Assembly: GCF_004010195.1 (NCBI RefSeq)
Contig: NC_057751.1
Location: 6,642,863 to 6,706,862, forward strand
Origin: Chiloscyllium plagiosum
Lineage: Eukaryota
Direction: 5' to 3'
Length of the DNA: 64,000 bases
Shown here: one piece after another, positions 11,536 through 54,310 of the stretch
Position numbering within the stretch: position 1 is the first letter of the stretch
How the letters are laid out: every line of letters begins with the position of its first letter
Made by a program: the position numbers and the translations under genes
The notes under the pieces: generated by a model
The model's input: only the letters and a program-made list of their open reading frames with translations
Databases searched by the model: none
Told to the model about the DNA's origin: nothing

Positions 11536-12808
11536 AAGGGAAAAGATTTAAAAGGGACCTAAGAGTCAACTTTTTCACACAGAGGGTAGTGCTTGTATGG
11601 AATAAGCTGCCAGAGGCAGTGGTGGAGGCTGTATAATTACAAATTTAAAAGGCATCTAGATGGGTCCGTGAATATGAAGGATTCAGAGGGATATGGGCCA
11701 AGTGTTGGCAAATGGGTCGAGATCAGATTGGTACATTTGGTCAATGCGGATGATTTGGACTGAAGGGTCTGTTTCCATGCTGTATGACTCTTTGACTCTA
11801 AATATTCTTTTATCATACTTACTCACTTATTCTCACATTTCATCTTCTCTCCTGCTTACTGCGTTTTTATTATCTCTTGCTGGTCTTTAAAAGCTTCCTA
11901 ATCCTCTGGTTTCCCACAAAACCTCACCAGATTGTATACTTTTCATTTTGCTTTGATGCTGTTCTGACTTCCCTTCTCCACCATGGTTGCCTCATCCATC
12001 CCTTCATATATTTCTTCTTCTTTGGGATGAATTTTTTCTCTGCTTCTCATATTAGCCCCAGAAACTCCTCCAATTGCTGCTCCACTGTTGATCCTGCTAG
12101 CTTGCTCCCCCCCGCCCCCCTCCACCTCTTCCAATCAACTTCCAGTTCCTCCCTCATGTCTCTGTAGTTACCTATGTTCACGGTGACTGACAAGATCTTG
12201 TCAAGTCCGTGGAATTTCAGACTTATGAAATGTCAGAGAAATGTGATATATAGAGAGTGTAAACAGAGAAATAAGAAGAAACTGAGAAAAATTTGCTCAT
12301 CAGAAAGCCACTCCTTGCACACTTCTCTGTGTTACCCTCCAGGAATATCCAAAATAGGGATGAGAAACTGATTGTAACACTAACATGTGTGCTTTCAGCC
12401 AAATGTCCTGGAGTATTGATGAGACTGCTATGAGGGCGCAGTTTTGAGAAAAGCAGTTTTAAAAACCCCTGCATTGCAGGTAAAACAAAAGACCATGCAT
12501 CACCCTGAATCCTATAATTTATGCTTGAAAGGAACCAGAACAACAGAATTCACACCAACCTATGAAATGAAGAATGGTGAAATCAATTGCTCAGCTGCCA
12601 ACTCTGTTGTTGCCAATAGAGCTACAATGTTTTTGTGTACTTTATGAACAATTCAGTAGCTGATTGATTTGCTTTTTCCCCTTTATGACTTACTACCTCA
12701 TTCCATTTTGTGTATGTGTGTTATGTTGCTATTTACTCTTGTGTTGAGTACTTAATAGATTCTTTTTTGTTGTTAATTTAAGAAAATCTGGTTAATTTGG
12801 CTCCTTTT

Positions 12809-15800
12809 TTTTAATAGATATTTTTATTAGAAATTTAACATTTTTACAAGTTTACAAAAATAAACAAAACTCTCAGATATAAACATTGATATACAATTAG
12901 CCCAAATATACAATAGCCAAAATTTGACAAAAAAAAANNNNNNNNNNNNNNNNNNNNNNNNNNNNNNNNNNNNNNNNNNNNNNNNNNNNNNNNNNNNNNN
13001 NNNNNNNNNNNNNNNNNNNNNNNNNNNNNNNNNNNNNNNNNNNNNNNNNNNNNNNNNNNNNNNNNNNNNNNNNNNNNNNNNNNNNNNNNNNNNNNNNNNN
13101 NNNNNNNNNNNNNNNNNNNNNNNNNNNNNNNNNNNNNNNNNNNNNNNNNNNNNNNNNNNNNNNNNNNNNNNNNNNNNNNNNNNNNNNNNNNNNNNNNNNN
13201 NNNNNNNNNNNNNNNNNNNNNNNNNNNNNNNNNNNNNNNNNNNNNNNNNNNNNNNNNNNNNNNNNNNNNNNNNNNNNNNNNNNNNNNNNNNNNNNNNNNN
13301 NNNNNNNNNNNNNNNNNNNNNNNNNNNNNNNNNNNNNNNNNNNNNNNNNNNNNNNNNNNNNNNNNNNNNNNNNNNNNNNNNNNNNNNNNNNNNNNNNNNN
13401 NNNNNNNNNNNNNNNNNNNNNNNNNNNNNNNNNNNNNNNNNNNNNNNNNNNNNNNNNNNNNNNNNNNNNNNNNNNNNNNNNNNNNNNNNNNNNNNNNNNN
13501 NNNNNNNNNNNNNNNNNNNNNNNNNNNNNNNNNNNNNNNNNNNNNNNNNNNNNNNNNNNNNNNNNNNNNNNNNNNNNNNNNNNNNNNNNNNNNNNNNNNN
13601 NNNNNNNNNNNNNNNNNNNNNNNNNNNNNNNNNNNNNNNNNNNNNNNNNNNNNNNNNNNNNNNNNNNNNNNNNNNNNNNNNNNNNNNNNNNNNNNNNNNN
13701 NNNNNNNNNNNNNNNNNNNNNNNNNNNNNNNNNNNNNNNNNNNNNNNNNNNNNNNNNNNNNNNNNNNNNNNNNNNNNNNNNNNNNNNNNNNNNNNNNNNN
13801 NNNNNNNNNNNNNNNNNNNNNNNNNNNNNNNNNNNNNNNNNNNNNTGCAGCATTGTCAAGGGGCCAGTATGGAGGGAGTGCAGCGTTGTCAGAGGATCAG
13901 GGCGGAGGGAGTGCAGCATTGTCAGAGGATCAGTGTGGAGGGAGTGCCGTATAGTCAGACGATCAGTGCGGAGGGAGTGCAGCATTGTCAGAGGATCAGT
14001 GTGGAGGGAGTGCCGTATAGTCAGACGATCAGTGCGGAGGGAGTGCAGCATTGTCAGAGGATCAGTGTGGAGGGAGTGCCGTATAGTCAGACGATCAGTG
14101 CGGAGGGAGTGCAGCATTGTCAGAGGGTCAGTGTGGACGGAGTGCAGCATTGTCAGAGCGTCAGGATGGAGGGAGTGCAGCATTATCAGAGGATCAGTGC
14201 AGATGGAGTGCAGCATTGTCAGGGGGACAGTGTGGACGGAGTGCAGCATTGTAAGAGGGTCAGGATGGAGCGAGTGCAGAATTGTCAGAGTGTCAGTGTG
14301 GAGGGAGTGCAGCATTGTCAGAGGTTCAGTAGGGAGGTATTGCAGCATTGCCAGAGGAACAGTGTAGAGGGAGTGCAGCATTGTTTTAGTGTCAGTGGGG
14401 AGGTATTGCAGTATTGTCAGAGGAACAGTGTAGAGGGAGTGCAGCATTATCAGAGGGTCAGGATGGAGCGAGTGCAGCATTGTCAAGGGGTCAGTATGAA
14501 GGGAGTGCAGCATTGTCAGAGGACCAGTGTGGAGATAGTGCAGCATTGTCAGAGGGTCATTGTCAAGGGAGTTCAGCATTGTCAGAGGAACAGTGTAGAG
14601 AGAGTGCAGCATTATCAGAGGGTCAGGATGGACGGAATGCAGCATTGTCAAGGGGCCAGTATGGAGGGAGTGCAGCGTTGTCAGAGGATCAGGGCGGAGG
14701 GAGTGCAGCATTGTCAGAGGATCAGTGTGGAGGGAGTGCCGTATAGTCAGACGATCAGTGCGGAGGGAGTGCAGCATTGTCAGAGGATCATTGTGGAGGG
14801 AGTGCAGCATTGTCAGAGGATCAGTGTGGAGGGTGTGCAGAATTGTCAGATGATCAGTGCGGAGGGAGTATAGCATTGTCAGAGGATCAGTGTGGAGGGT
14901 GTGCAGCATTGTCAGAGGGTCAGTGTGGAGGGAGTGCAGTATTGTCAGAGGATCAGTGTGGAGGGAGTGCAGCATTGTCAGAGGGTCAGTACGGATGGAA
15001 TGCAGCATTGTCAGAGGGTCAGGGTGGAGGGAGATCAGCATTGTCGAGGGTCAGTACGGAGGGAGTGCAGCATTGTCAGAGGGTCAGTACGGATGGAATG
15101 CAGCATTGTCAGAGGGTCAGGGTGGAGGGAGTGCAGCATTGTCAGAGGATCAGTGTGGAGGGAGTGCAGCATTGTCAGAGGGTCAGTTTCGTGGGTGTGC
15201 AGCATTGTCAGCTGATCAGTGTGGAGGGAGTGCAGCATTGTTAGAGGGTCAGTTTCAAGGGAGTGCAGCATTGTCAGAGTATAAGGATGGAGGGAGTGCA
15301 GAATTATCGGAGGGTCAGTATGGAGGCAGTGCAGCGTTGTCAGAGGGTCAGAATGGAGGGAGTGCAGCCTTGTCAGAGGGTCACGGTGGAGGGAGTGCAG
15401 CATTGTCAGATGATCAGTGTGGAGGGAGTGCAGCATTGTCAGGGGGTCAGGATGGAGGGAGTGCAACATTATCAGAGGACCAGTGCAGAGGGAGTGCAGC
15501 ATTGTCAGGGGGACAGTGTGGACGGAGTGCAGCATTGTCAGAGGGTCAGGATGGAGGGAGTGCAGCATAATCATTGGTCAGGGTGGAGGGAGTGCAGCAT
15601 TGTCAGAGGGTCAGTGTTGAGGGAGTGCAGCATTGTCAGTGGATCAGTGTGGAGGTAGTGCAGCATTGTTAGAGGGTTAGTGGGGAGGTATTGCAGCATT
15701 GTCAGAGGAACAGTGTAGAGGGAGTGCAGCATTGTCAAGGGGTCAGTATCGAGGGAGTGCAGCGTTGTCAGAGGATCAGTGCGGAGGGAGTGCAGCATTG

Positions 15801-17090
15801 TCAGAGGATCAGTGTGGAGGGAGTGCAGTATAGTCAGACGATCAGTGCGGACGGAGTGCAGCATTGTCAGAGGATCAGTGTGGAGGGAGTGCAGCATTGT
15901 CAGAGGTTCTGTGTGGAGGGAGTGCAGCATTGTCAGAGGGTCAGTTTGGAGGGTGTGCTGCATTTTCAGATGATCAGTGTGGAGGGAGTGCAGCATTGTC
16001 AGAGGGTCAGGGTGGAGGAAGTGCAGCATTTTAAGAGAGATAGTGCGGAGGCATTGCAGCATTGTCAGAGGGTCAGTACGGAGGGAGTGCAGAATTTTCA
16101 GATGGTCAGTACGGAGGGAGTGCAGCATTGTCAGAGTTTCAGTGTGGAGGGAGTGCAGTATTGTCAGAGGATCAGTGCGTAGGGATTGCAGCATTGCCAG
16201 GGGGACAGTGTGGACGGAGTGCAGCATTGTCAGAGGGTCAGGATGGAGAGAGTGCAGCATTGTCAGAGGATCAGTGCAGAGGGAGTGCAACATTACCACT
16301 GGGTCAGGGTGGAGGGAGTGCAGCATTGTCAGAGGGTCAGTGTTGAGGGAGTGCAGCATTGTCAGTGGCTCAGTATGGAGGGAGTGCAGCATTGTCAGAG
16401 GATCAGTGTGGAGGGAGTGCAGCATTGTCAGAGGATCATTGTCAAGGGAGTTCAGCATTGTCAGAGGAACAGTGTAGAGGGAGTGCAGCATTATCAGAGG
16501 GTCAGGATGGAGGGAGTGCAGCATTGTCAAGGGGTCAGTATGGAGGGAGTGCAGCATTGTCAGAGGACCAGTGTGGAGGTAGTGCAGCATTGTCAGAGGA
16601 TCATTGTCAAGGGAGTTCAGCATTGTCAGAGGAACAGTGTAGAGGGAGTGCAGCATTATCAGAGGGTCAGGATGGAGGGAGTGCAGCATTGTCAAGGGGC
16701 CAGTATGGAGGGAGTGCAGCGTTGTCAGAGTATCAGGGCGGAGGGAGTGCAGCATTGTCAGAGGATCATTGTGGATTGAGTGCAGTATAGTCAGACGATC
16801 AGTGCGGAGGGAGTGAAGCATTGTCAGAGGATCATTGTGGAGGGAGTGCAGCATTGTCAGAGGATCGGGGAGGGGTTCCTGCTTGCTGAGAGCCTCGGGC
16901 TCCTTTCCCTTTAGTCATTTTAACTTAGGATTAAGTTGTTTAAATGTAATATTACACAACTAATTGAATTACAAAACTATTATAAATGATTTGGTGAGCT
17001 TGGTAGGGGGTAGGTGACCCACTGTGCCCAAGTCTTGGGAGGAGCACTATAGACTCAGTCTTACTGGGTCGCCGCCATCTTGGATCCCCC
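12809..17090 (-). mobile_element. L1-type LINE termini with 15-bp TSD; interior is an N gap plus minisatellite
   Basis: Minus strand starts GGGGGATCCAAGATGGCGGCG (YY1-type), ATG at 16918 (MTKGKGARGSQQAGTPPRS), AATAAA at 12828-12823 then A tail; TSD aatttggctcctttt at 12794-12808 and 17091-17105, followed by aa. Confidence 0.8.
13846..16866. repeat. 33-bp minisatellite, ~91 units (consensus gagggagtgcagcattgtcagagg(g/a)tcagtgtg)
   Basis: Obvious tandem periodicity; 11-aa repeats in the ORF track; left end runs into an N gap. Confidence 0.97.
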
Positions 17091-17744
17091 AATTTGGCTC
17101 CTTTTAAACTAATAATTAATTTGGGTCTGGGATGCAAGTATTTACAAGGGAGCTCGTTGGTCCGTTCTCAACCAAGATTTTAACGATTTGTGTACCCTCT
17201 CTGGAACTGTAACAAATTTAAGAAGCTCGCCAAATGGGTACTGCTCTTGCCTCTGGCTTTGAACACCACTACAAGTTTGGTTATGGACCTTCGGCTGGCA
17301 GTACGGTATGTTAGCATTCCTTATACCTACTGGAATATAAACTGAAAATGGAGGCGAGTTTGGATATTGCTATGTTGCAGAGAATGAAATTGATTTTTTT
17401 TCTCTTCAAAAGTAAAAGTGGAACTGTGTGTTGTTCACTTACTGGTTATGCAAGGTCAATGAACTTTGGAGAAGCTGGATTTTATATACTTGGGAGATAA
17501 GCAAGCAGAAAGCGCCTTTGGATTAAGAAACTGCCTTGTGACAGCTTTCAGATGGTTAATTTGCAGTTTGTCACAGGTATGAGAGAAGGCAGTTCTGCTT
17601 CAACTTCTGAAAAACCTATAAACCAGATCAAATCACATTCTCCCTCTTACCCTCTGTAATGGAAGAAAATCATTTTGAGTGGAAACACTAAAATACATTG
17701 AGCAGAAATATCTCAGTCAAAGACCTATCTCCAACTTTGTTGTT

Positions 17745-17947
17745 TCTTTTCATGCGATGTGGATGTCATTGGCTAGGCCAGTATTCATTGTCCAGAGAGG
17801 AGTTCAAAGCTACGATACGATTTTTATTGTATGACAATGAGCAATGGTTATATATTTGTCATTAGATAATCTATTTCTATTAATTCCTGAAACAACGGCA
17901 TTTGAACTCAAATCCTGAGACATTACCACCATGCCACCACCTCCCCA
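17745..17947 (-). mobile_element. Degenerate SINE sharing its 3' tail with the CR1/L2-group LINE
   Basis: tttcatgcgatgtggatgtcattggctaggccagtattcattg resembles 4338-4385; head ...cattaccaccatgccaccacctcccc. Confidence 0.55.
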
Positions 17948-19299
17948 ACTAACCAACTATTGATTGAGAATCTTCAGTAGTTGACAACAGTGAGATGTCA
18001 AAAACCAAAAACAAATGTGAAAAATCATCTCATTCCACCCTTATGGTTTGGACTCATGATTGATGGAATTTGCTCCCTCTTACCTATCTTTTCCACCCAT
18101 CATATTTCTGCAATCGTATTTGTGAATGAATGTTTATGTCTCTGTACTTGTGTTTCAAAGGGACATTATTGAACTCTGCAAACCAATAATGAAAAATCCA
18201 TTTTGCCATTTGTCAAAGGACAACTTTATTTCTAACAATTATTTTGTTTTCTAGTTTATCAATTAAACATGCTTTGAAGTTTCTTTTATTTTAGATAGTA
18301 GTCAAAGTCAGGTAAATTAACTGTGTTGGTGATTAGTTTGGTCATTTATACAATTGTGCTGGCTCATGGAATTGTCGTGCTTAAGTACCAGCACTTTTTT
18401 TTAATGTTCAGGGCTATATCAAGTGCTTTACTGAGTTGCTGTGGCATTGTGTGAGATGTTTTATACATCCATCTGCTTGTCTTGGTGTGTTTCAGAAGCA
18501 CAATCATAACACGTGAGGAATATTCTCTTCAACCTTGTCTAGATCAGACCATGACATGATTCCTGAAAATATATGAACTTTTAAAAAAATTTACTCTTCG
18601 TAAGATTCTGTAGGGATACTACAACATTTCTTTTTCTCTGTTTGTTGGTAAAATACTTAGTTGAAAATAGGAATTTTGAAAGTGTTTCTTGCTCCTATTC
18701 TTGTTTCTGAACAGTGGTAGTGCGGGGTTCTGGTTTACATCAGTTATTTCCTGATGTTTAAGTGGTTTGAATTGCTCCCAGACCCCTGTTTCTGGACACT
18801 GGACTTCTTTTGGGAATATGAAATGAAGACACAATGAACAGATGTTTCAGGGCAAAAGAATCTCTGCGTTTATTTCAAATGCAAAAAGTAATTATAATAT
18901 AATGAAATAGATAATGCAATAAATTAAAGAAATTAATACAACATATGTACTGGAGAACAACAGCACTTAAAAATACACTATTAATTAGATCACCATTGTT
19001 AGACACTACCTTACTGACACACCGACAACAACAGTGTTTAATTTCAGACTCTTTAATTAGAATTCCTACCCTTGGGGTCACAATGCATTCTCACCACCCA
19101 CTTTCCCTTCCATGCTAGCGAGATTTGAACTTGAGGATCTCGGGAGTTTAGTTCATTTTGAAACACCATTTTGAAGTGCACCTGGCTGTTCTGACTTGCT
19201 GTACCTGGAGCCTGGATAAAGATTTCGGATTGCGTAGGTTTTTCAGTTTTGGTTGAGTCTGCCAATGTGGTAAGGCGCAAATTGGATCTATTGGGTAAG

Positions 19300-20078
19300 T
19301 GTTACGACACGGGGTGGGTGGGGGGGGGATCCCCTCTGTGTTCTGTTCATTATCCCAAATACCCAGAAAAGCTCACCTTGCCTCGTAATCTGTTAAAATT
19401 TGAGTGACAGAGAACTCCCAAATTCCATTATTCAAAGAAAATAACATCAATTTATTTTTAACTCCAAAAGTGAATATTATAACAACAACTATTCACAACT
19501 CTAGGTGCCCCCCTTTCTCTTAATTGCTTATTACCTGCCTCTAACTCGATAACAATATGCTGTTCCAATAAGACACTTATTGAAATTATATCAACTGAAT
19601 TTCCAAACCACACAGCTGCTGTTGTCTTCTATAACTTCACTCTTCTGGCTGCTGAATTCCCTGGGTCACCTTCTTTATTTTTACTGTGAGTATATTTCGT
19701 ATGAAAAGATACCTTTGATTGAGAGCGTTTCCTAATTTTTTGTGTCTCTTTCTGTCTCCAATTTTCAAAATACTGTCATTTTTATATCCCCAACATTGGA
19801 TTGTCTCATTGGTTCGATGTTAGTAAAAAATAAATTCAAACTTGATTGAGTTTTAGTATCCTGGGTATAATATAAACTGATTGCTTAAATTTGAATTGTT
19901 GTCAAAACAGCAACCAAAACTTACGTATCCATTTCACAGCCAAATGTTGTACATTTTCAATGTTCCAGTCCACTCTGGGACTGCCATCTAGTCATATCAC
20001 AGGTGCTTGTAAGTTCTCAGTTCAGAACAGGATTCACTCTCTCATAAAGATACAGTGCACGCCTTCAACTTGTGAACA
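19300..20078 (-). mobile_element. Solo LTR, family A-related (779 bp)
   Basis: TGTTA...AACA ends, 5-bp TSD GTAAG (19295-19299, 20079-20083); shares aaattcaaacttgattg block with 9468-10175. Confidence 0.8.
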
Positions 20079-27598: not shown

Positions 27599-28129
27599 CA
27601 CTATGTAATACACACTGTCTAACATTAATTATCAATTTAAGACTGTGATGTGAGTTGGACTTAACTCATGCAGTACATCATGTTAATTATGAACTAACTG
27701 TTTGTACCATGATGGTGACATAATCTGGCTTGTGATCAAGCCGATGCAATAATCTAATTGTGTCTGTTTAATTTGGGGATTCGTCAATATTAAATGACAC
27801 TTCAAGCAATGCAGCACTTACTATCATCGGTGTCTTATTTCAAATTAGTGTTATAATTTCATCTGGATCAGGTTTATGTCACACTGTGGAGTTTAAAATC
27901 TGACACTTGCACATCTGTCAACCTCATGTAAATTCTCTCAGCAATATGCATTTTTAAAATAATTACCGATTTCCGCTTGTCATGAGCGACAATGTCACTT
28001 TGTTTCATCTGACATCCTGCGAGGTCTGGAAAGAGTGAGGATCAATTCTCGATGCTGGGGTTATGCAACAGGTTTTTCAGGAGGAAGCATAAATCACGGA
28101 GAACAAACTTTGATAAATCTCTGACGCTT

Positions 28130-29900
28130 GGGCTTCAAGGGTTAACGTGGATACATGTTTTTTGCGGCAGTCCAGGTGCAATGCTCTGAGGTCCCTGGAT
28201 CAACATATTACCTCGAATTCGCACGGTGCCTGCACACCGGGAGCAAAGCATTGCAGAGGGCAGGCAAACGCGCCGGTTCACTTGGCCGTCTGAGAGCAGC
28301 AAAGGCCAGCGAGGAGGGAGGGGAGAGAAGAGTGTTTCGCCTCTGCCCGTTGTTGGCATAAGGTCTGCTTTGCTTGCGGCCGGGGTCGGAGTGGAGGGGG
28401 AGGCTAAATCTTGGTCAGCCCTGTCCCTCTCCGAGTGGACGTGTATGTATGCGTGTGCCGGAGAAGAGGAGATCTCAAGCAGCATTTTTTCCCTCCAGCC
28501 GCAGACCCCGCTTGTGCTGCAGAACGACACGCGTCTCAGCCCAGGCGGGGAAAGGGGAGCACGCGCTGGCCCCGCGCCCTCCCATTGGCCGCCTGTTGTC
28601 TGTAACATTCCATCTTTGGAACGCGGAGACCTGCGGCACGGTGCCGATTGGAGGAGCCTGACTGTCAATCAAAGCGCCCGCGCTCAATCAGGTCCGCCTG
28701 AGCGCAGCAGGTTGCAACATACACACACACACTAAACAGGGACCCTCATCGCAGAGCCGGAGTTTGGTTAAAGTGAAAGGATCAGCCGCTCGACCGCAGT
28801 CCGACTCTCCCGCCTCGAGATGACCCGCCCTCGTTAGAGTTAAAGAAGTCGCAGGGCTTGAGGAGGTTTGCGCGCATCCAGGATCCCTCCCGCCCAGTCA
28901 AGGGACCATGAAGAAACTGCTACTGGGATGTTGCTGGCTGCTTCCTTGGGCTCTCCTCGCCGCAGGTGGAGGGGAAAAGGGTAAGGGGGTTGGGGGCGGG
29001 GGTAAGGCGCGGAGGGAGTAAAGTGCTGTACGTTGTCATTGCCCATCTTTGTATTGCAGCCGGTCGATGAAAGAAATGAGATGTGAAGGGGCGCTGCTGG
29101 GACCTGGGTCCCTTCCAAAGAGAGTGACAGCCAGTTAAGTTCACGACAAGAGCAAAGCGTGGCAGTCTGAACCTGCCACTTGGGCAGGGTTGTTAAAATC
29201 GTGCTCGGACCAGTATGCGTGAAATGGTCAAACTCCGGGCATAATTGAATAGGAGGTGGTTTGATTTGAGGAGAGAACGTATGATGGCCAAGGCAACGGT
29301 TTCAAATTCCATCTGTCAGGCTGAAAGTGCCTTCTGGAAAATGAATTGCCCGTTGAGGCTGTAAACCGTGGAAAGGTGAACAGAGCGTCAATTCTTCACT
29401 CCGGTATCTCACTGACTGCAGGACACTGCATCGATTTCTCAATTACAGTATCGGAATGACCGAGAGGATCTGTTAAAAACAGCTCCTCTCACCTTCTTCC
29501 CGTGTTCTCGCTTCTGTTTGCGAGCAACAGTCCCGGAGAGAGACTCGACCCGGTGTCCCTCTCAAGTCGCCAGCGGTTCAACAACTACCTCCCCACCACC
29601 ACCTCTCGCCCCTCCACCTCCCCCAACCCCATCATGTAAAATACTCCTAGACTTCAAAGTTGTCCTCCACCGAGAGATTGCAGTACAACAATTTGATACT
29701 TCTAAAATGTAACAAACGACAAGGTGAAATCGTTCCGAACTAATGATGAGCAAACGTTGTTGGGGGTGGGGAGCGGGGAGACTTCCGAGAGGTTTCTTTT
29801 CCCCCGTTTAGTTTGTTGAGATATTTTGGATCCAGCTCGCTGTAATCACACAAACGCCGGGCAATCATGCAAAACAACAAAATACCGTACGCTTTTCTGT
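28130..29900 (+). promoter_or_regulatory. CpG island and promoter of the + strand gene
   Basis: Sharp local rise in CpG and GC against CpG-depleted flanks; ATTGG boxes at 28584 and 28647, CTGTCAATCA at 28662-28671, GC-rich boxes; contains the first coding exon. Confidence 0.85.
28908..28980 (+). CDS. First coding exon (signal peptide) of an unidentified secreted or type-I membrane protein
   Basis: Kozak ggaccATGa; MKKLLLGCCWLLPWALLAAGGGEK+G (basic N-region, hydrophobic core, small residues); strong donor AAGG|gtaagg, phase 1; inside a CpG island. Too short for the ORF track. Confidence 0.8.
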
Positions 29901-37484: not shown

Positions 37485-37692
37485 TTAAAAATCACACAAC
37501 ACCAGATTATAGTCCAACAGGTTTAATTGGAAGCATACTAGCTCTCGGAGCGACACTCCTGACAGTCACCTGATGAAGGAGCGTCGCTCCGAAAGCTAGT
37601 GTGCTTCCAATTAAACCTGTTGGACTATAACCTGGTGTTGTGTGATTTTTAACTTTGTACACCCCAGTCCAACACCGGCATCTCCGAATCAT
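37485..37692 (+). mobile_element. Penelope-derived foldback insertion (second PLE family)
   Basis: 76-bp inverted arms 37485-37560 and 37577-37652; TSD tactttattgat/tactctattgat (37473-37484, 37693-37704). Confidence 0.8.
37567..37601 (+). ncRNA. Minimal type I hammerhead ribozyme motif
   Basis: cac-CTGATGA-a-ggagc gtc gctcc-GAAA-gc-TA-gtg: intact core, 5-bp stem II, stem I cac/gtg, palindromic minimal stem III. Confidence 0.7.
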
Positions 37693-39229: not shown

Positions 39230-40833
39230 ATTCTGGATTAGTGGTGCTGGAAGAGCACAGCAGTTCAGGCAGCATCCAAGGAGCTTCGAAATCGACGTTT
39301 TGAGCAAAAGCCCTTCATCAGGAATAAAGGCAGTGAGCCTGAAGCATGGAGAGATAAGCTAGAGGAGAGTGGGGGTGGGGAGAAAGTAGCATAGAGTACA
39401 ATGGGTGAGGGGGGGAGGGGATGAAGGTGATAGGTCAGGGAGGAGAGGGTGGAGTGGATAGGTGGAAAAGGAGATAGGCAGGTAGGACAAGTCCGGACAA
39501 GTCATGGGGACAGTGCTGAGCTGGAAGTTTAGAACTAGGNNNNNNNNNNNNNNNNNNNNNNNNNNNNNNNNNNNNNNNNNNNNNNNNNNNNNNNNNNNNN
39601 NNNNNNNNNNNNNNNNNNNNNNNNNNNNNNNNNNNNNNNNNNNNNNNNNNNNNNNNNNNNNNNNNNNNNNNNNNNNNNNNNNNNNNNNNNNNNNNNNNNN
39701 NNNNNNNNNNNNNNNNNNNNNNNNNNNNNNNNNNNNNNNNNNNNNNNNNNNNNNNNNNNNNNNNNNNNNNNNNNNNNNNNNNNNNNNNNNNNNNNNNNNN
39801 NNNNNNNNNNNNNNNNNNNNNNNNNNNNNNNNNNNNNNNNNNNNNNNNNNNNNNNNNNNNNNNNNNNNNNNNNNNNNNNNNNNNNNNNNNNNNNNNNNNN
39901 NNNNNNNNNNNNNNNNNNNNNNNNNNNNNNNNNNNNNNNNNNNNNNNNNNNNNNNNNNNNNNNNNNNNNNNNNNNNNNNNNNNNNNNNNNNNNNNNNNNN
40001 NNNNNNNNNNNNNNNNNNNNNNNNNNNNNNNNNNNNNNNNNNNNNNNNNNNNNNNNNNNNNNNNNNNNNNNNNNNNNNNNNNNNNNNNNNNNNNNNNNNN
40101 NNNNNNNNNNNNNNNNNNNNNNNNNNNNNNNNNNNNNNNNNNNNNNNNNNNNNNNNNNNNNNNNNNNNNNNNNNNNNNNNNNNNNNNNNNNNNNNNNNNN
40201 NNNNNNNNNNNNNNNNNNNNNNNNNNNNNNNNNNNNNNNNNNNNNNNNNNNNNNNNNNNNNNNNNNNNNNNNNNNNNNNNNNNNNNNNAAAAAATGTCGG
40301 TGTCAAGTCGGTCGTCATTAATGGAGATGGAGATGGTCCAGGTAAATTTAAGGTCAGGGTGGAATGTTTTGGTGAAGTTGATGAATTGCTCAACCTCCTC
40401 GCGGGAGCACGAGGTGGCGCCAATGCAGTCATCAGTGTAGCGGAGGAAGAGGTGGGGAGTGGTGCCGGTGTAATTACGGAAGATCGACTGCTCTACGTAG
40501 CCAACAAAGAGACAGGCATAGCTGTGGCCCATTCATGCGCCCATGGCTACCCCTTTGGTCTGGAGGAAGTGGGAGGATTCAAAGGAGAAATAGTTAAGGG
40601 TGAGGACCAGTTCGGCCAAATGAATGAGAGTGTCGGTGGAAGGGTACTGTTGGGGATGTCTGGAGAGGAAAAAACGGAGGGCTTGGAGGTCCTGGTCATG
40701 GCGGATGGAGGTGTAGAGGGATTGGATATCCATGGTGAAGATGAGGCGTTGGGGGCTGGGGAAACGGAAGTCTTGGAGGAGGTGGAGGGCGTGGGTGGTG
40801 TCTCGAACGTATGTGGGGAGTTCCTGGACTAGG
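39230..40833 (-). mobile_element. Penelope-like element, 5'-truncated, RT pseudogene (gap inside)
   Basis: LPTYVRDTTHAL..FTMDIQSLYTSI..LTLNYFSF..QTKGVAMG/..YACLFVGYVE..FLRYTDD..FHPDLKFT; frameshift at ~40533; terminal repeat at 39230-39325. Confidence 0.93.
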
Positions 40834-40964
40834 ATGTTCACCTTTGTGACACCGAACTGTGAGCAGTGGCACTCTGTCTACCTTCAACCGGTCAATGTAA
40901 TTTATTTGTTTGCTTGGAGTCAATTGTGACTTCTACGCATTAATTGTCAAAAGCATACAGTTGA

Positions 40965-44589: not shown

Positions 44590-44855
44590 GTGATGAGCAG
44601 GTAATTTGTTTTAGTGGCTCGTTGAGCGCTAAGTCTTGGCCAGGATTGGTTTCTCAGGTCTTCTTCAAAATAGTGTGATAGGATCTTTTGTGTTCACCTC
44701 AGAAGACAATGGGGCGTCACTTGAAGTCACATCTGAAATACAACACTCCCTCATACAGCATTGGAGTGTAAGCACAGATATTTCGTGCACAAATCCTGTC
44801 TTTAAGCCCACGACCTTCAGAGACTCAAGTGTTACCAGCTGAGCCGCAGCTGAAG
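44590..44855 (-). mobile_element. DeuSINE (SacSINE1-like)
   Basis: ggatcttttgtgttcacct...cactccctcatacagcattggagtgt...cccacgaccttc..gactca..ccagctgagccgcagctga. Confidence 0.7.
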
Positions 44856-48770: not shown

Positions 48771-48924
48771 GTCGTCTTGTGCAGAGAAGTGGGCAAGACT
48801 GACCTCTTTTTTTTGCCTCCGAGAGGCAACAGCATTACCTCAAGTTAGTTAAATTTTCTGAAGAATGAGTCGCTGTCAATCATACTAATTGTAAAATAGA
48901 AGGACCATGAATTGTGAAAAGAAC

Positions 48925-49357
48925 TACTTGGATTTATGTACACCGTAGTGCCATTTTGACTTCCCAATATCCCACAATGGTTGACAGTCACTGAAGTACT
49001 TTTGAAATGTAGCTGCTCTTAGAATGTAGGAAAGTTGGCAACCAGTATGTGAACAAGATCCCACAAGCAGCAGGGAAACAATGACCATATAATTTGTGAG
49101 TGATCTTAGTTGAGTCAATAAACATTCGTCAGGACTCAGCTTGTATTGTAAGTAGCATTTTTCTTTTGTCTGCCTCAGATTCCAAAGAGGTCTTTTAGTT
49201 TGAAAGTTTGAGAAAGGAAAGGAGCCGTGCCCAATACTTTAGCATTTTGTGTGTGTGTATGTCAGCCTGGATGGTTGATCAAGTCTCAGGAGTGTGACTT
49301 CAGCCCTCACCCCATGGGATTTAGTGGTGACAGCACTCCCACTGAGCAACAGCTGAT
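48925..49357 (-). mobile_element. DeuSINE (SacSINE1-like), near full length, diverged
   Basis: gaagtacttttgaaatgtag...aagatcccacaagcagca...tgtcagcctgga...caagtctcaggagtgtgactt...cccactgagcaacagctga. Confidence 0.7.
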
Positions 49358-50617
49358 TCATGTCATGTGGCATATTACAGCATCACAAGGTTTTGAAATA
49401 ATCTTGAGTCACTTGCATAAGTCAACAACACTTCTCCTTTCAGACTAGAAGTTGAAAGTTCACATTTTACTCAAATGCTTCAGTTGGATTGTCTTGTTGA
49501 GACTTCAGGACAGGAGGGTGCTGTCATCATATGAAATGCTAAACCCATCTATGGTAAACCTTCAGAAGGACAAAAGGAGAGCTGATATTCCCAGAGGATG
49601 ATAGGAAAACTAGATGAGTCAAAATCTGACTGAAATCTTGCAAGACCATCACTTTAAGATTGCGTTATGGTTACCATGGTGATCGATCACTGACTGTCAA
49701 TACACTTTTAACAGAAGATCGCTGAAGTCACTTGCACAAAAGAAAAACAGTTCTAAGACAGTTCTGAAAGGTCTAATTAACAGCAATATCCTTCATAGAT
49801 GCTCAACCTCAGTGAAGCATCAGTTTGGTGTTTACTTTAAAAGTTGTTTTGAAGTAACAATGTCACAAATGTTTTCTTTTGGCAGCTTTCTGTGCAATAA
49901 ACTAGCACATCTCTCTCAGATATCCACTATTCAAAGGGTTATCACAGAAGTGAAGGATTTTAACAATTTTCTGAATTCACCCCTCATTTCAACCCAGATT
50001 GAAAGCATGACCCAGGGTTCTGTTGTTAACAGAATTATTATTTTTTCAAGTAAGTTTAAGGGAAACACAACTATGAACTGTCGGCATATAGCTCTACCAG
50101 TACAATCTGAAATGCTCTTATAAGCTGCCCCTTACACACACGCATTCAAAATGCAGAGGGTAAGACTGGGAAGACAGCTCAGTGGTTCCTGTTCACGGGG
50201 TTACTGAGCTGATTCTCTCTTTCGAGGTTGGGGTTGGTCAAAGCACCTGCTCCTCGGTCTTGCCTCTTCAGAGGCTCTCACTAGTTTGCTGGAGGCACAG
50301 GGTTCACACAAACAAAAAAAGTGCTTCCGACTGTTGCAATAAAAGTAACGGCATGCAGCAACTGCTGGAGGAAACAAGTTGTGTTTAGATTTAATGCACG
50401 CTTCAAGTTTGCTGCAAAGAACAGAAAGAGCTCCTGAGCTGGTGAAAATTGGCCATGCAGCTGCTCTGAGGTTCCTCCAAACTTCCACGCATTCAAATTG
50501 ACATACGGATGTGTTAACGTCCAGTTTCAGAAATTAATGTCCCGCTTGGACCTTGCAAGTCCACGCAGTGGAAAAAAAAATGAGCTTGTGTTTTGCTTCT
50601 CCCTGTCCTATTCATAG

Positions 50618-52150
50618 TCCCCACCGAACTCATCTCTGCATACCTCGACACGGTCCTGTCCCCCTTAGTCCAAGAACTCCCCACCTACGTTCGGGACACC
50701 ACCCACGCCCTCCACCTCCTCCATGATTTTCGCTTCCCCGGTCCCCAACGCCTTATCTTCACCATGGACATCCAGTCCCTATACACCTCCATCCCCCATC
50801 ACGAAGGACTTAAAGCCCTCCGCTTCTTCNNNNNNNNNNNNNNNNNNNNNNNNNNNNNNNNNNNNNNNNNNNNNNNNNNNNNNNNNNNNNNNNNNNNNNN
50901 NNNNNNNNNNNNNNNNNNNNNNNNNNNNNNNNNNNNNNNNNNNNNNNNNNNNNNNNNNNNNNNNNNNNNNNNNNNNNNNNNNNNNNNNNNNNNNNNNNNN
51001 NNNNNNNNNNNNNNNNNNNNNNNNNNNNNNNNNNNNNNNNNNNNNNNNNNNNNNNNNNNNNNNNNNNNNNNNNNNNNNNNNNNNNNNNNNNNNNNNNNNN
51101 NNNNNNNNNNNNNNNNNNNNNNNNNNNNNNNNNNNNNNNNNNNNNNNNNNNNNNNNNNNNNNNNNNNNNNNNNNNNNNNNNNNNNNNNNNNNNNNNNNNN
51201 NNNNNNNNNNNNNNNNNNNNNNNNNNNNNNNNNNNNNNNNNNNNNNNNNNNNNNNNNNNNNNNNNNNNNNNNNNNNNNNNNNNNNNNNNNNNNNNNNNNN
51301 NNNNNNNNNNNNNNNNNNNNNNNNNNNNNNNNNNNNNNNNNNNNNNNNNNNNNNNNNNNNNNNNNNNNNNNNNNNNNNNNNNNNNNNNNNNNNNNNNNNN
51401 NNNNNNNNNNNNNNNNNNNNNNNNNNNNNNNNNNNNNNNNNNNNNNNNNNNNNNNNNNNNNNNNNNNNNNNNNNNNNNNNNNNNNNNNNNNNNNNNNNNN
51501 NNNNNNNNNNNNNNNNNNNNNNNNNNNNNNNNNNNNNNNNNNNNNNNNNNNNNNNNNNNNNNNNNNNNNNNNNNNNNNNNNNNNNNNNNNNNNNNNNNNN
51601 NNNNNNNNNNNNNNNNNNNNNNNNNNNNNNNNNNNNNNNNNNNNNNNNNNNNNNNNNNNNNNNNNNNNNNNNNNNNNNNNNNNNNNNNNNNNNNNNNNNN
51701 NNNNNNNNNNNNNNNNNNNNNNNNNNNNNNNNNNNNGTGGGGGCTGCAGATGCTGGAGATCAGAGCTGAAAATGTGTTGCTGGAAAAGCGCAGCAGGTCA
51801 GGCAGCATCCAAGGGATGAACTCAGATTTCTCCAGTTTCCTCATTTCTCCTCCCCCCACCTTGTCTCAGTCAAATCCCTCAAACTCAGCACCGCCTTCCT
51901 AACCTGCAATCTTCTTCCTGACCTCTCCGCCCCCACCCCACTCCCCGGCCTATCACCCTCACCTTGACCTCCTTCCACCTATCGCATTTCCAACGCCCCT
52001 CCCCCAAGTCCCTTCTCCCTACCTTTTATCTTAGCCTGCTGGACACACTTTCCTCATTCCTGAAGAAGGGCTTGTGCCTGAAACGTCGATTCTTCAGTTC
52101 CTTGGATGCTGCCTGACCTGCTGCGCTTTTCCAGCAACATATTTTCAGCT
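50618..52150 (+). mobile_element. Penelope-like element (RT, gap, inverted terminal repeat) with TSD
   Basis: PTELISAYLDTVLSPLVQELPTYVRDTTHAL..FTMDIQSLYTSIPH; flanking duplication ctgtcctattcatag (50603-50617, 52151-52165). Confidence 0.93.
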
Positions 52151-52410
52151 CTGTCCTATTCATAGCCCAGTTTCTCCAACTGCCTGAGAACTAATCACAG
52201 AGTTGTTGACAGGCAGAAGGCCTTTTTCATCGATAATTGGTCATTGGTCCACAGATCGATCAGCCACTGTTGCCAACAAAAGGTGGTTTTCTCTCCAGCC
52301 CTTTGGTTCAAATGCATCTGCAAATGACACTTCAACTGGAACCTGCAGCTATGTCAACAGTCTTTCCAATGAATAATGGAAAGCGCGACAAACACTAGAT
52401 AGCTGAAACA

Positions 52411-52571
52411 AAAACAGAAGTTGCTTGAGAAACTCAACAGGTCTGGTAGCATCTGTGGAGAGAAAGCAGAGTTAATGCTTTAGAGTCCAGTGACAGTCCT
52501 GAAACATTGGCTCTGCTTTCTCTCCACAGATGCTGCCAAACCTGCAAAGCTTCTCCTGCAATTCCTGCTTT
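52411..52571. mobile_element. PLE-derived foldback element
   Basis: gcatctgtggagagaaagcagagttaatg versus cattggctctgctttctctccacagatgc inverted arms; degenerate relatives at ~32555-32720 and ~53090-53245. Confidence 0.7.
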
Positions 52572-54310
52572 CGTTTACAGTCAGTGTCAGTTTACTTGCT
52601 TTTAAAACATACAGCCACCTTTGGTTTTCAAAACAGTTCTTTTTCTTATTTCAGTCCACAATTAAAAACACAGAAAAAAGTAAAACAACAGTCTTTACAC
52701 AATAAGTTCTCTGTTTCTCCTCAAGATGTGCAAACAGGCTAACTTAACTGATACTTCCTCCATTGAATGCTATGGGTTTTTCCCAGCCCTATTTACTCGG
52801 GCTGCTAAAACTGGGTAGGACTACTCTCCATTTCTGTTGTTGTGGAAGCTGCTAAAAACTAAACTAACCTTCTGTTGGTCAGGATTTTCTCAACTCAATC
52901 TGTCAAGGTCCCTAGCTATCTATCCTTATGTAGGTCATAAAAGGTTCAGGAATTAGCTCGTCAGCTGACTTGCTAGTCACATGTTTCTTGGAAATCTGTT
53001 CAAACGTAACATGAGAAAGGAGTTTTTCTGACCCTTGAAGCCAGCCATCTTCAGAAAACCACAACCAAAAACCTATTTAACTCTCAAACAATAGCCGAAA
53101 TTGCTGGAGAAACTCAGCAATTTCAGAAACCTCTTCCGAAAGAATGTCTCTGCACCTGAAAAACTAACTCTGCTTCCTCCCCTTAGGTTTCTCGAGCAAT
53201 TTCTGTGTTTGTTTCAGATTTCCAGGATCCCTCGTTCTTGGTTTTATTTTTCACATGTAACTCCAATCAGAATTAAAACTGCAAAGTATTAACAACAGAT
53301 TACAAACCCACACCCCCCACAATCTGATCAAATTTACAGAATTTCTTCTTTCATCTGAATCAGAGAGAAAATTACTCTTTAGCCTTGACAAACCATGCAG
53401 TGTGGACCTTGTATTAAATCTTGTAAAAATGCAGTAAACTAAAGCAAATCGTCCTTTTGTAAATCACTCCGAGATGGCTAATTAAATCCTTCGTTTCTTG
53501 AGCATTATACCTGTATAATCACCTTTTTACAGCCATGGCCCGCAAACAAATAAACTGTGATGAAGCTGGGGGTGTTTGCTTGTTAATTGCAGCTGTTAAT
53601 CATTGCAATTACATTGATCGTGCTTTCATTTAATAAACCTTCCCCAGTTGCAGGCTCCCTTGGGAAGCCCAGACAGTTGTACACTTTCCTGTTCAATCAC
53701 ATGTCTGACACTTATCAGTTGCTGCTGGTATGAATTGCAAGAGCAGCAATCCCAGACATTGCCCAGGCTCTTCATTTAGACTAATGCTCTGCGCTGGGAT
53801 TCGATGAATATCGCAGTTTAATAATTCTGGTGGATAAGCCAAGAAGAAATCCTGATGGCTGAACAGACAAACTTTCTTGGTCATTAGCAGGCATATGCCC
53901 TTTGTATGTGTGCATTAGAGATGGGAAATGTGAAGGATGCCATGACTCATTATTGTCTGACAGAGCCATAGCTCTTCCACAGTGCAGAATTCATTGTCAC
54001 TTCATACTATCGCTATCACTGTGCTATTTTAACAGTTTGAATTTTAGTGCCACTAGGGCTTTTGAAATTGATCACTATCATCACTCCCAGGCCCTGAGCA
54101 AGATGTCCTAATTTGGAACGGTTCTGGCTGGGATACTCCAAATTATTGATGTCCCAGGTAAGGAGGGATGAACTGGCTCCCCTGCTTTATTCACACATCC
54201 CCTTGGTTGATTGCAACAATGTTAATTCAGAAAGGATTCTTTTGATGTGCGTACAGTTCTCCCAGATCACATGAACTCATGATTAAAAGGAGCCAATTTA
54301 AATTGGACTT

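Follow-up and report, generated by a model that had tools for sequence, protein, structure and literature searches.

Fish L1 retrotransposons have a 5′ untranslated region (UTR) of 113-267 nt, a low-GC, poly-T 3′ UTR of 16.7-34.0% GC and a total length of at least 5.2 kb (Boissinot and Sookdeo 2016, PMC5381506; this and the other PMC sources are cited for the parts of their text that were available). According to the same source, mammalian L1 has at its start a YY1 site, CAAGATGGC. Composite retroposons with variable-number tandem repeats (VNTR) are described as hominoid-specific in the available part of PMC4432496, and microhomology has been invoked in the remodelling of the VNTR in SVA, LAVA, PVA and FVA (PMC4432496, PMC5753468). 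It is a general and accepted idea that minisatellites are spread by mobile elements in which they lie (PMC6947457), and shark genomes are rich in simple tandem repeats, more so on short chromosomes (PMC10620051). Here we describe an element in a 64,000-nt stretch of the Chiloscyllium plagiosum assembly GCF_004010195.1 (contig NC_057751.1, positions 6,642,863 to 6,706,862; hereafter the window), which occupies 12794..17105 on the minus strand and measures 4,282 bp between the two copies of its target-site duplication (TSD). We identify it tentatively as one L1-type retrotransposon copy that retains its two ends and a TSD and has a 33-bp minisatellite for its interior. Of the histories considered for it, the one ranked first, although it too remains uncertain, makes it a dead L1 copy in which part of an abundant 33-bp minisatellite that existed beforehand took the place of the interior once the element had inserted. 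The parts listed in a preliminary description of the locus (5′ end, leader, ATG, array, gap, AT-rich tail and TSD) are all present where it had placed them.

The insert is bounded by a 5′ TSD copy at 17091..17105 and a 3′ copy at 12794..12808 (both minus strand), identical at 15/15 positions, and the 15-mer is present just twice in the whole window. As a chance control, 20,000 random pairs of 75-nt windows were drawn, skipping pairs with N, inside the array or close together, and an exact word of at least 15 letters was shared in 2 of the 16,007 valid pairs. The plus strand reads CTTTT/AAAC at 17105|17106, which puts a TTTT/AA cut site, the known site of the L1 endonuclease, at the outer edge of the TSD, as the preliminary description had it. 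On the minus strand the element begins at 17090 with G5-ATC-CAAGATGGCGGCG, and the conserved 5′ terminus of an L1-type family (17006..17090, minus strand), a G-run followed by CAAGATGGCGG, is common to other copies and has the highest summed contig depth outside the array. The CAAGATGGCGG motif, at 17082-17072, is YY1-site-like, and as a start motif it agrees with the core of the mammalian L1 start consensus (PMC5381506). The leader, or 5′ UTR, extends over 172 nt (16919..17090, minus strand), as delimited from the sequence and public contigs, and leads to an open reading frame (ORF) stub of 28 codons (16835..16918, minus strand), with its ATG at 16918 and a TGA at 16834-16832. Codons 1 to ~17-20 of the stub are an L1-type ORF start and the remaining codons are array-coded, in keeping with the 5′ end, the 172-nt leader and the ATG with a frame soon stopped in the array that had been reported.

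At the opposite end lies a T-rich 3′ tail of 129 nt and 18.6% GC (12809..12937, minus strand), with AATAAA at 12828-12823; the tail and the polyadenylation signal thus stand as previously described, and the A tail reported with them amounts to merely 4 As outside the TSD, or 8 counting the TSD's own. The join between array and tail is covered by an assembly gap of 908 N (12938..13845). An intact ORF1 and an ORF2 encoding endonuclease and reverse transcriptase (RT) are absent from the assembled sequence. The element fails as an autonomous L1 because of the stop at codon 29, an insert of only 4,282 bp, and a run of 908 N that is too small for ORF2 unless the gap is badly underestimated. The termini fit L1; the insert length does not fit an autonomous L1. 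Since protein searches could not confirm ORF1, the choice between the L1 and Tx1 clades is provisional, having been decided on the termini alone. A search with the ORF stub read through its stops returned five candidates, none at E ≤ 10, the stub being too short for a sensitive search, and no Rfam family matched inside the element. A target-specific, Tx1-type long interspersed element (LINE) was rejected, as five other copies, among the matches listed, do not align past 17091; contig depth at 17109-17117 is just ~4-8 times that of single-copy sequence, which counts against a common target sequence.

Two further frames were considered. A stop-free frame of 447 codons (15571-16914, minus strand) runs from the leader through half of the array and is open because of the 33-bp array period; none of 8,000 scored candidates was homologous to it, and it matched no Pfam family. 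An opposite-strand frame across the join gave five matches, all of them long repetitive proteins without the array-coded motifs and like bacterial surface proteins, which were judged to be chance.

Public sequencing contigs place the 5′ end both at this locus and in a larger family. Of 24 listed public runs, 20 contain part of 16840-19800, no RNA run being listed among them; they come from the organism that matches best (A) and from a relative (B). Four of the 24 were compared with 16810-17700 at 88% likeness, namely three DNA runs (X1 and X6 from A, X12 from B) and one RNA run; in the RNA run, of which ~6 in 100 reads were sampled, no reads aligned. The contig evidence consists of the best 24 of 18,987 pieces and the best 18 of 224 loose-end rows, 12 of these rows being for A; public contigs drop rare paths, and their summed depth is not a copy number. 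In two A samples from two studies, flank contigs of single-copy depth enter the element by 27 (X1) and 26 (X6) letters and then end, with 0 and 4 other letters, respectively, in haplotypes slightly different from that of the window. Such an entry is below the 31-letter bridging rule of the contig comparison, yet too long for chance, and the 5′ end is present at this flank. The identical 5′ terminus recurs in five pieces among the best 24, which end at 17086-17091 against unrelated flanks of single-copy depth, and the summed depth over 17020-17079 is 35,000-190,000, as against 4-13 in the flank. The 5′ end therefore belongs to a large dispersed L1-type family without a common target, and the recurrence of the terminus, next to this flank in two samples and beside unrelated flanks at other loci, shows that it is real.

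The family is less uniform beyond its head. The first ~85 nt (17006-17090) are several-fold deeper than the remaining leader (16930-17005), and the part at 16930-16989 is less widely common, with no depth in the related species at 88% likeness, though the ORF start has depth there. The drop may mean that the terminus is conserved while the leaders behind it vary, or that a shorter family has the same head. At the target site (17091-17139) a few other single-copy-depth contigs per run match, and three in X6 have a common extra letter at 17115. The insertion apparently took place in a low-copy repeat of some age, possibly of long-terminal-repeat type. In B, a contig of 2,441 nt aligns from 17700 to 17145, where its alignment ends 40 nt short of the TSD and its next 743 letters are unaligned, suggesting that B may be without the element at this site; the contig is no clean empty site.

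The interior of the element is a 33-bp minisatellite array (13846..16866, minus strand) of 91.6 units and 54% GC, with a mean identity of 89.8% to the majority unit and with higher-order blocks. Its direct joining to the ORF start at ~16866, reported earlier, was confirmed in the assembled sequence, array identity beginning at 16866. From this position the array is identical at 40/40 and then at 387/400 positions to an internal block at an offset of 2,044 nt, and upstream of 16866 there is no match. With identity beginning so abruptly, the array is not L1 sequence expanded in place but a fragment of a higher-order array that already existed. The duplicated higher-order blocks are ~97%, not 100%, identical; exact array repeats of at least 60 nt number eight in all, five at the gap end and three elsewhere, and the sequence of the array is for the greater part unique. 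Of 21 internal array matches, none reaches exactly beyond 16866. The end of the array that faces the gap (13846..14126) consists of exact re-runs of earlier array sequence, with 153 nt (13846-13998) equal to 14638-14790 and 159 nt exact at an offset of 66. This gap-side edge is suspect, because its last ~280 nt exactly repeat earlier array sequence, and probably reflects either looping in the assembler or a duplication that happened very recently. The minisatellite is abundant in both species, with a summed depth of ~1-5 million against 4-13 in the flank (a depth, not a copy number). A likeness of the 33-bp unit to a shark short interspersed element (SINE), which we had presumed from recall, is unsupported by alignment: the best local score in the masked window was 39, against 24-41 for 15 shuffled units, with no nhmmer hit under E 0.66, and derivation from such a SINE was rejected. 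Known shark SINEs are named, no more, in the available part of PMC10468316.

The join between leader and array occupies a zone of up to 8 nt (16859..16866, minus strand) that fits the array as well as the L1-type ORF start, array identity extending from 16866 and relatives aligning to 16859; the zone is a candidate microhomology of at most 8 nt. Six X12 contigs from B, which form one row among the loose-end rows compared, align down to 16859; their letters beyond it are not array sequence and, when translated by eye, continue the frame after codon 20 with P-A-A-A-E-A-S. Because these contigs leave at 16859 and remain in frame, the relatives have an ordinary ORF continuation. For A (X1, X6), no ORF-continuing loose end was seen in its 12 rows. 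The preliminary description had proposed looking at whether other copies go on into ORF1 or into the VNTR: the six contigs of B enter the ORF frame, and none enters the array among the matches listed. The join lies 224 nt from the single-copy flank, a distance across which, we infer, read pairs can be anchored from flank to join.

On the replacement of the interior after insertion, the course of events would have been as follows. A full-length L1 would have inserted by target-primed reverse transcription, and a later break would have occurred inside the element; DNA repair would then have copied 3-4 kb from another array, switching template at a short similarity, and ORF1 and ORF2 would have been lost, or displaced into an underestimated gap. 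The leader would yield merely a 28-residue peptide, and the copy would be dead because the leader gives this peptide only. Its sequence differs at 7 of 224 positions from the X1 majority, and these differences, together with the 4-A tail, suggest that there was time enough for a later rearrangement.

Several observations weigh against this history. No contig bridges the join among the matches listed in the three DNA runs, a weak negative, as contigs drop rare paths. At 16895, 29 nt from the join, the window's letter is found in 0 of 8901.6 of X1 depth, and because all of that depth has another letter, X1 is without an aligned contig having the window's version of the join; in X6 the other letter accounts for 19,673 of 19,704, and the window's letter for at most 30.6. 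The mismatch gives the join no support and does not refute it. The 8-nt overlap comes from mismatch-tolerant alignments, the array adjoins the gap with its last ~280 nt loop-like, and the 3′ join is hidden in the gap. Furthermore, the evidence does not separate a DNA-level replacement from a template switch at insertion. Two adjacent letters at 16894-16895, 28-29 nt from the join, are unlike those of nearly all family contigs; these changes may stem from private decay, from error-prone repair close to a breakpoint, or from errors in the reads.

The alternative that survives best is an assembly misjoin, in which an ordinary full-length L1 occupies the locus and scaffolding or gap filling joined the 5′ contig end to a genuine array belonging to another place. 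This is possible, although on the whole doubtful. It would account for an array that adjoins the 908-N gap through exact re-runs and for a join that is bridged by no listed contig and has a letter at 16895 missing from X1, and it is consistent with relatives that go on in the ORF frame; two other large gaps inspected in the window likewise adjoin repeats, as in a fragmented assembly. Assemblers normally need ~25-30 matching bases to merge two sequences, and an overlap of at most 8 nt is far below this figure; since no internal array match passes 16866 exactly and the array is mostly unique, an assembler would find no extended overlap to merge on. Similarly, higher-order blocks that are ~97% and not 100% identical indicate that most of the array is genomic, and the flank-to-flank length of 4,282 bp is below that of a full non-mammalian L1 (PMC5381506), provided that the gap estimate is right.

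A one-off tripartite chimera, formed at insertion, is unlikely. Here the RT would have been primed on an L1 tail, jumped to a minisatellite RNA, and returned to an L1 RNA near codon 18-20, running on to the true 5′ end. A single perfect TSD around all three parts and the patchy similarity at the join are what such an event would leave, and double template switches with 14-16-bp direct repeats are known in Magnaporthe and mouse (PMC2104539). The 5′ parts described in the available text of that source are full-length cellular RNAs, not a 224-nt front piece of a LINE, mammalian switching is mostly limited to U6/U6atac according to the available part of PMC4476161, and the event would require a minisatellite RNA of 3-4 kb together with two internal jumps.

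More improbable still is a non-autonomous composite family, in which the L1 promoter drives transcription of a master copy (L1 leader, minisatellite body, L1 tail), which is retrotransposed in trans and so scatters the minisatellite: complete ends, a perfect TSD, the want of an ORF-continuing loose end for A in the 12 rows compared, and an array-to-leader depth ratio of ~100:1 in X1 and X6, near the unit number of the array (maybe a coincidence, depth not being a copy number), agree with it, but a second copy of the join was not seen among the matches listed, the window's letter at 16895 is so absent or rare (0 of 8901.6 in X1, at most 30.6 of 19,704 in X6) that no abundant family has this haplotype, the related species is rich in the array and yet its listed copies continue in the ORF frame, and RTE, Ingi, Vingi and R2 are the only groups with reported ORF-less bipartite LINEs in the available part of PMC5786205. 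The SVA-like family dispersing this minisatellite, which the preliminary description put forward, is so far not borne out, no second leader-array join having been seen among the matches listed and the copies with a known continuation (six contigs, B) staying in the ORF frame. Of the two alternatives named in that description, a later replacement of the L1 interior and a gap-closing chimera, the replacement is ranked first here.

The other repeats of the window resemble shark repeats. No host gene was found among the frames scanned against Pfam (35 + 7 of the 103 listed), which gave one sub-threshold hit. A GC-rich island of 58% at 28001-29000 could be a promoter on its composition, and no coding match was found near it in the frames scanned. 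The pieces at 39231-40877 and 50584-52153, which we take to be Penelope-like RT fragments (there was no Pfam hit), adjoin two gaps; a calibration of gap size by these two copies was dropped, since a fold-back short insertion (51737-52153), distinct from them, forms the second gap's far side. Two degenerate SINE-like pieces at ~44600-44790 and ~48900-49300 (both minus strand) are weakly alignable to one another. Long inverted repeats lie at 37485-37652 (76 nt, 95%) and 52406-52576 (78 nt, 79%), with loops of 15-16 nt, the second having sub-threshold matches to microRNA families; both are likely to be hairpin-shaped transposon relics. Searches with exact DNA patterns found no match in collections of metagenome, prokaryote and viral sequence, none of these being animal-genome collections. 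No such element in sharks was described in the titles and abstract openings listed by literature searches; subscription journals, Repbase/Dfam or supplements may hold one.

If the interior was replaced after insertion, the locus has the modest value of one dead, rearranged L1 copy, and would be a clean case of a template switch at short homology carrying a minisatellite block to a new place, the original boundaries being recorded by the TSDs. Direct support for a minisatellite-carrying, L1-dependent family is so far none, and we hold its existence to be improbable. Such a shark family of ORF-less composite retroposons, copied in trans by L1 and scattering this minisatellite, would, if real, mean that SVA-like elements arose independently, and would offer a testable explanation of how an abundant shark minisatellite spread; by the available parts of PMC4432496 and PMC5786205, no VNTR composite would have been known before it outside hominoids, and no ORF-less, two-ended derivative in the L1 clade.

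Among the known systems, HAL1 and the bipartite non-autonomous LINEs keep both LINE ends, as here (PMC5786205, PMC5753468). HAL1 retains an intact ORF1, whereas the stub described here stops after 28 codons (PMC5786205, PMC5753468), and the ORF-less bipartite LINE families are multi-copy and derived from internal deletion, being known only from RTE, Ingi, Vingi and R2 in the available text (PMC5786205). Tripartite template-switch chimeras likewise have three parts within one pair of 14-16-bp repeats, a 3′ LINE piece and single-copy occurrence (PMC2104539, PMC4476161); in this element one TSD encloses the parts and the 5′ join is direct, the 3′ join lying inside the gap. The chimeras have a full-length cellular RNA or a SINE as 5′ part, whereas both ends here are apparently LINE and the middle is a tandem array (PMC2104539, PMC4476161), and a chimera with a cellular-RNA 5′ part was rejected, the 5′ part being a LINE front fragment with no Rfam match. 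SVA, LAVA, PVA and FVA share with the element a central array of 30-50-bp units within L1-type TSDs and a polyadenylated end (PMC4432496, PMC5753468), the 33-bp, 54% GC array resembling theirs in form. They differ in a CT-hexamer/Alu-like 5′ domain, multi-copy occurrence, demonstrated trans-mobilisation and hominoid specificity, as against an L1-leader head and one known copy (PMC4432496, PMC5753468); membership of SVA/LAVA was rejected, the 224 nt before the array being an L1-type leader and ORF start in which no hexamer repeat was found. The closest likeness is to the L1 of non-mammalian vertebrates, which has a similarly short 5′ UTR (172 nt here), a low-GC, T-rich 3′ UTR (18.6%), and AATAAA with an A tail (PMC5381506). 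The element departs from these L1s in an ORF1 that ends by ~20 codons, an ORF2 absent from the assembly, a length of 4.3 kb against at least 5.2 kb, and a minisatellite for its interior (PMC5381506).

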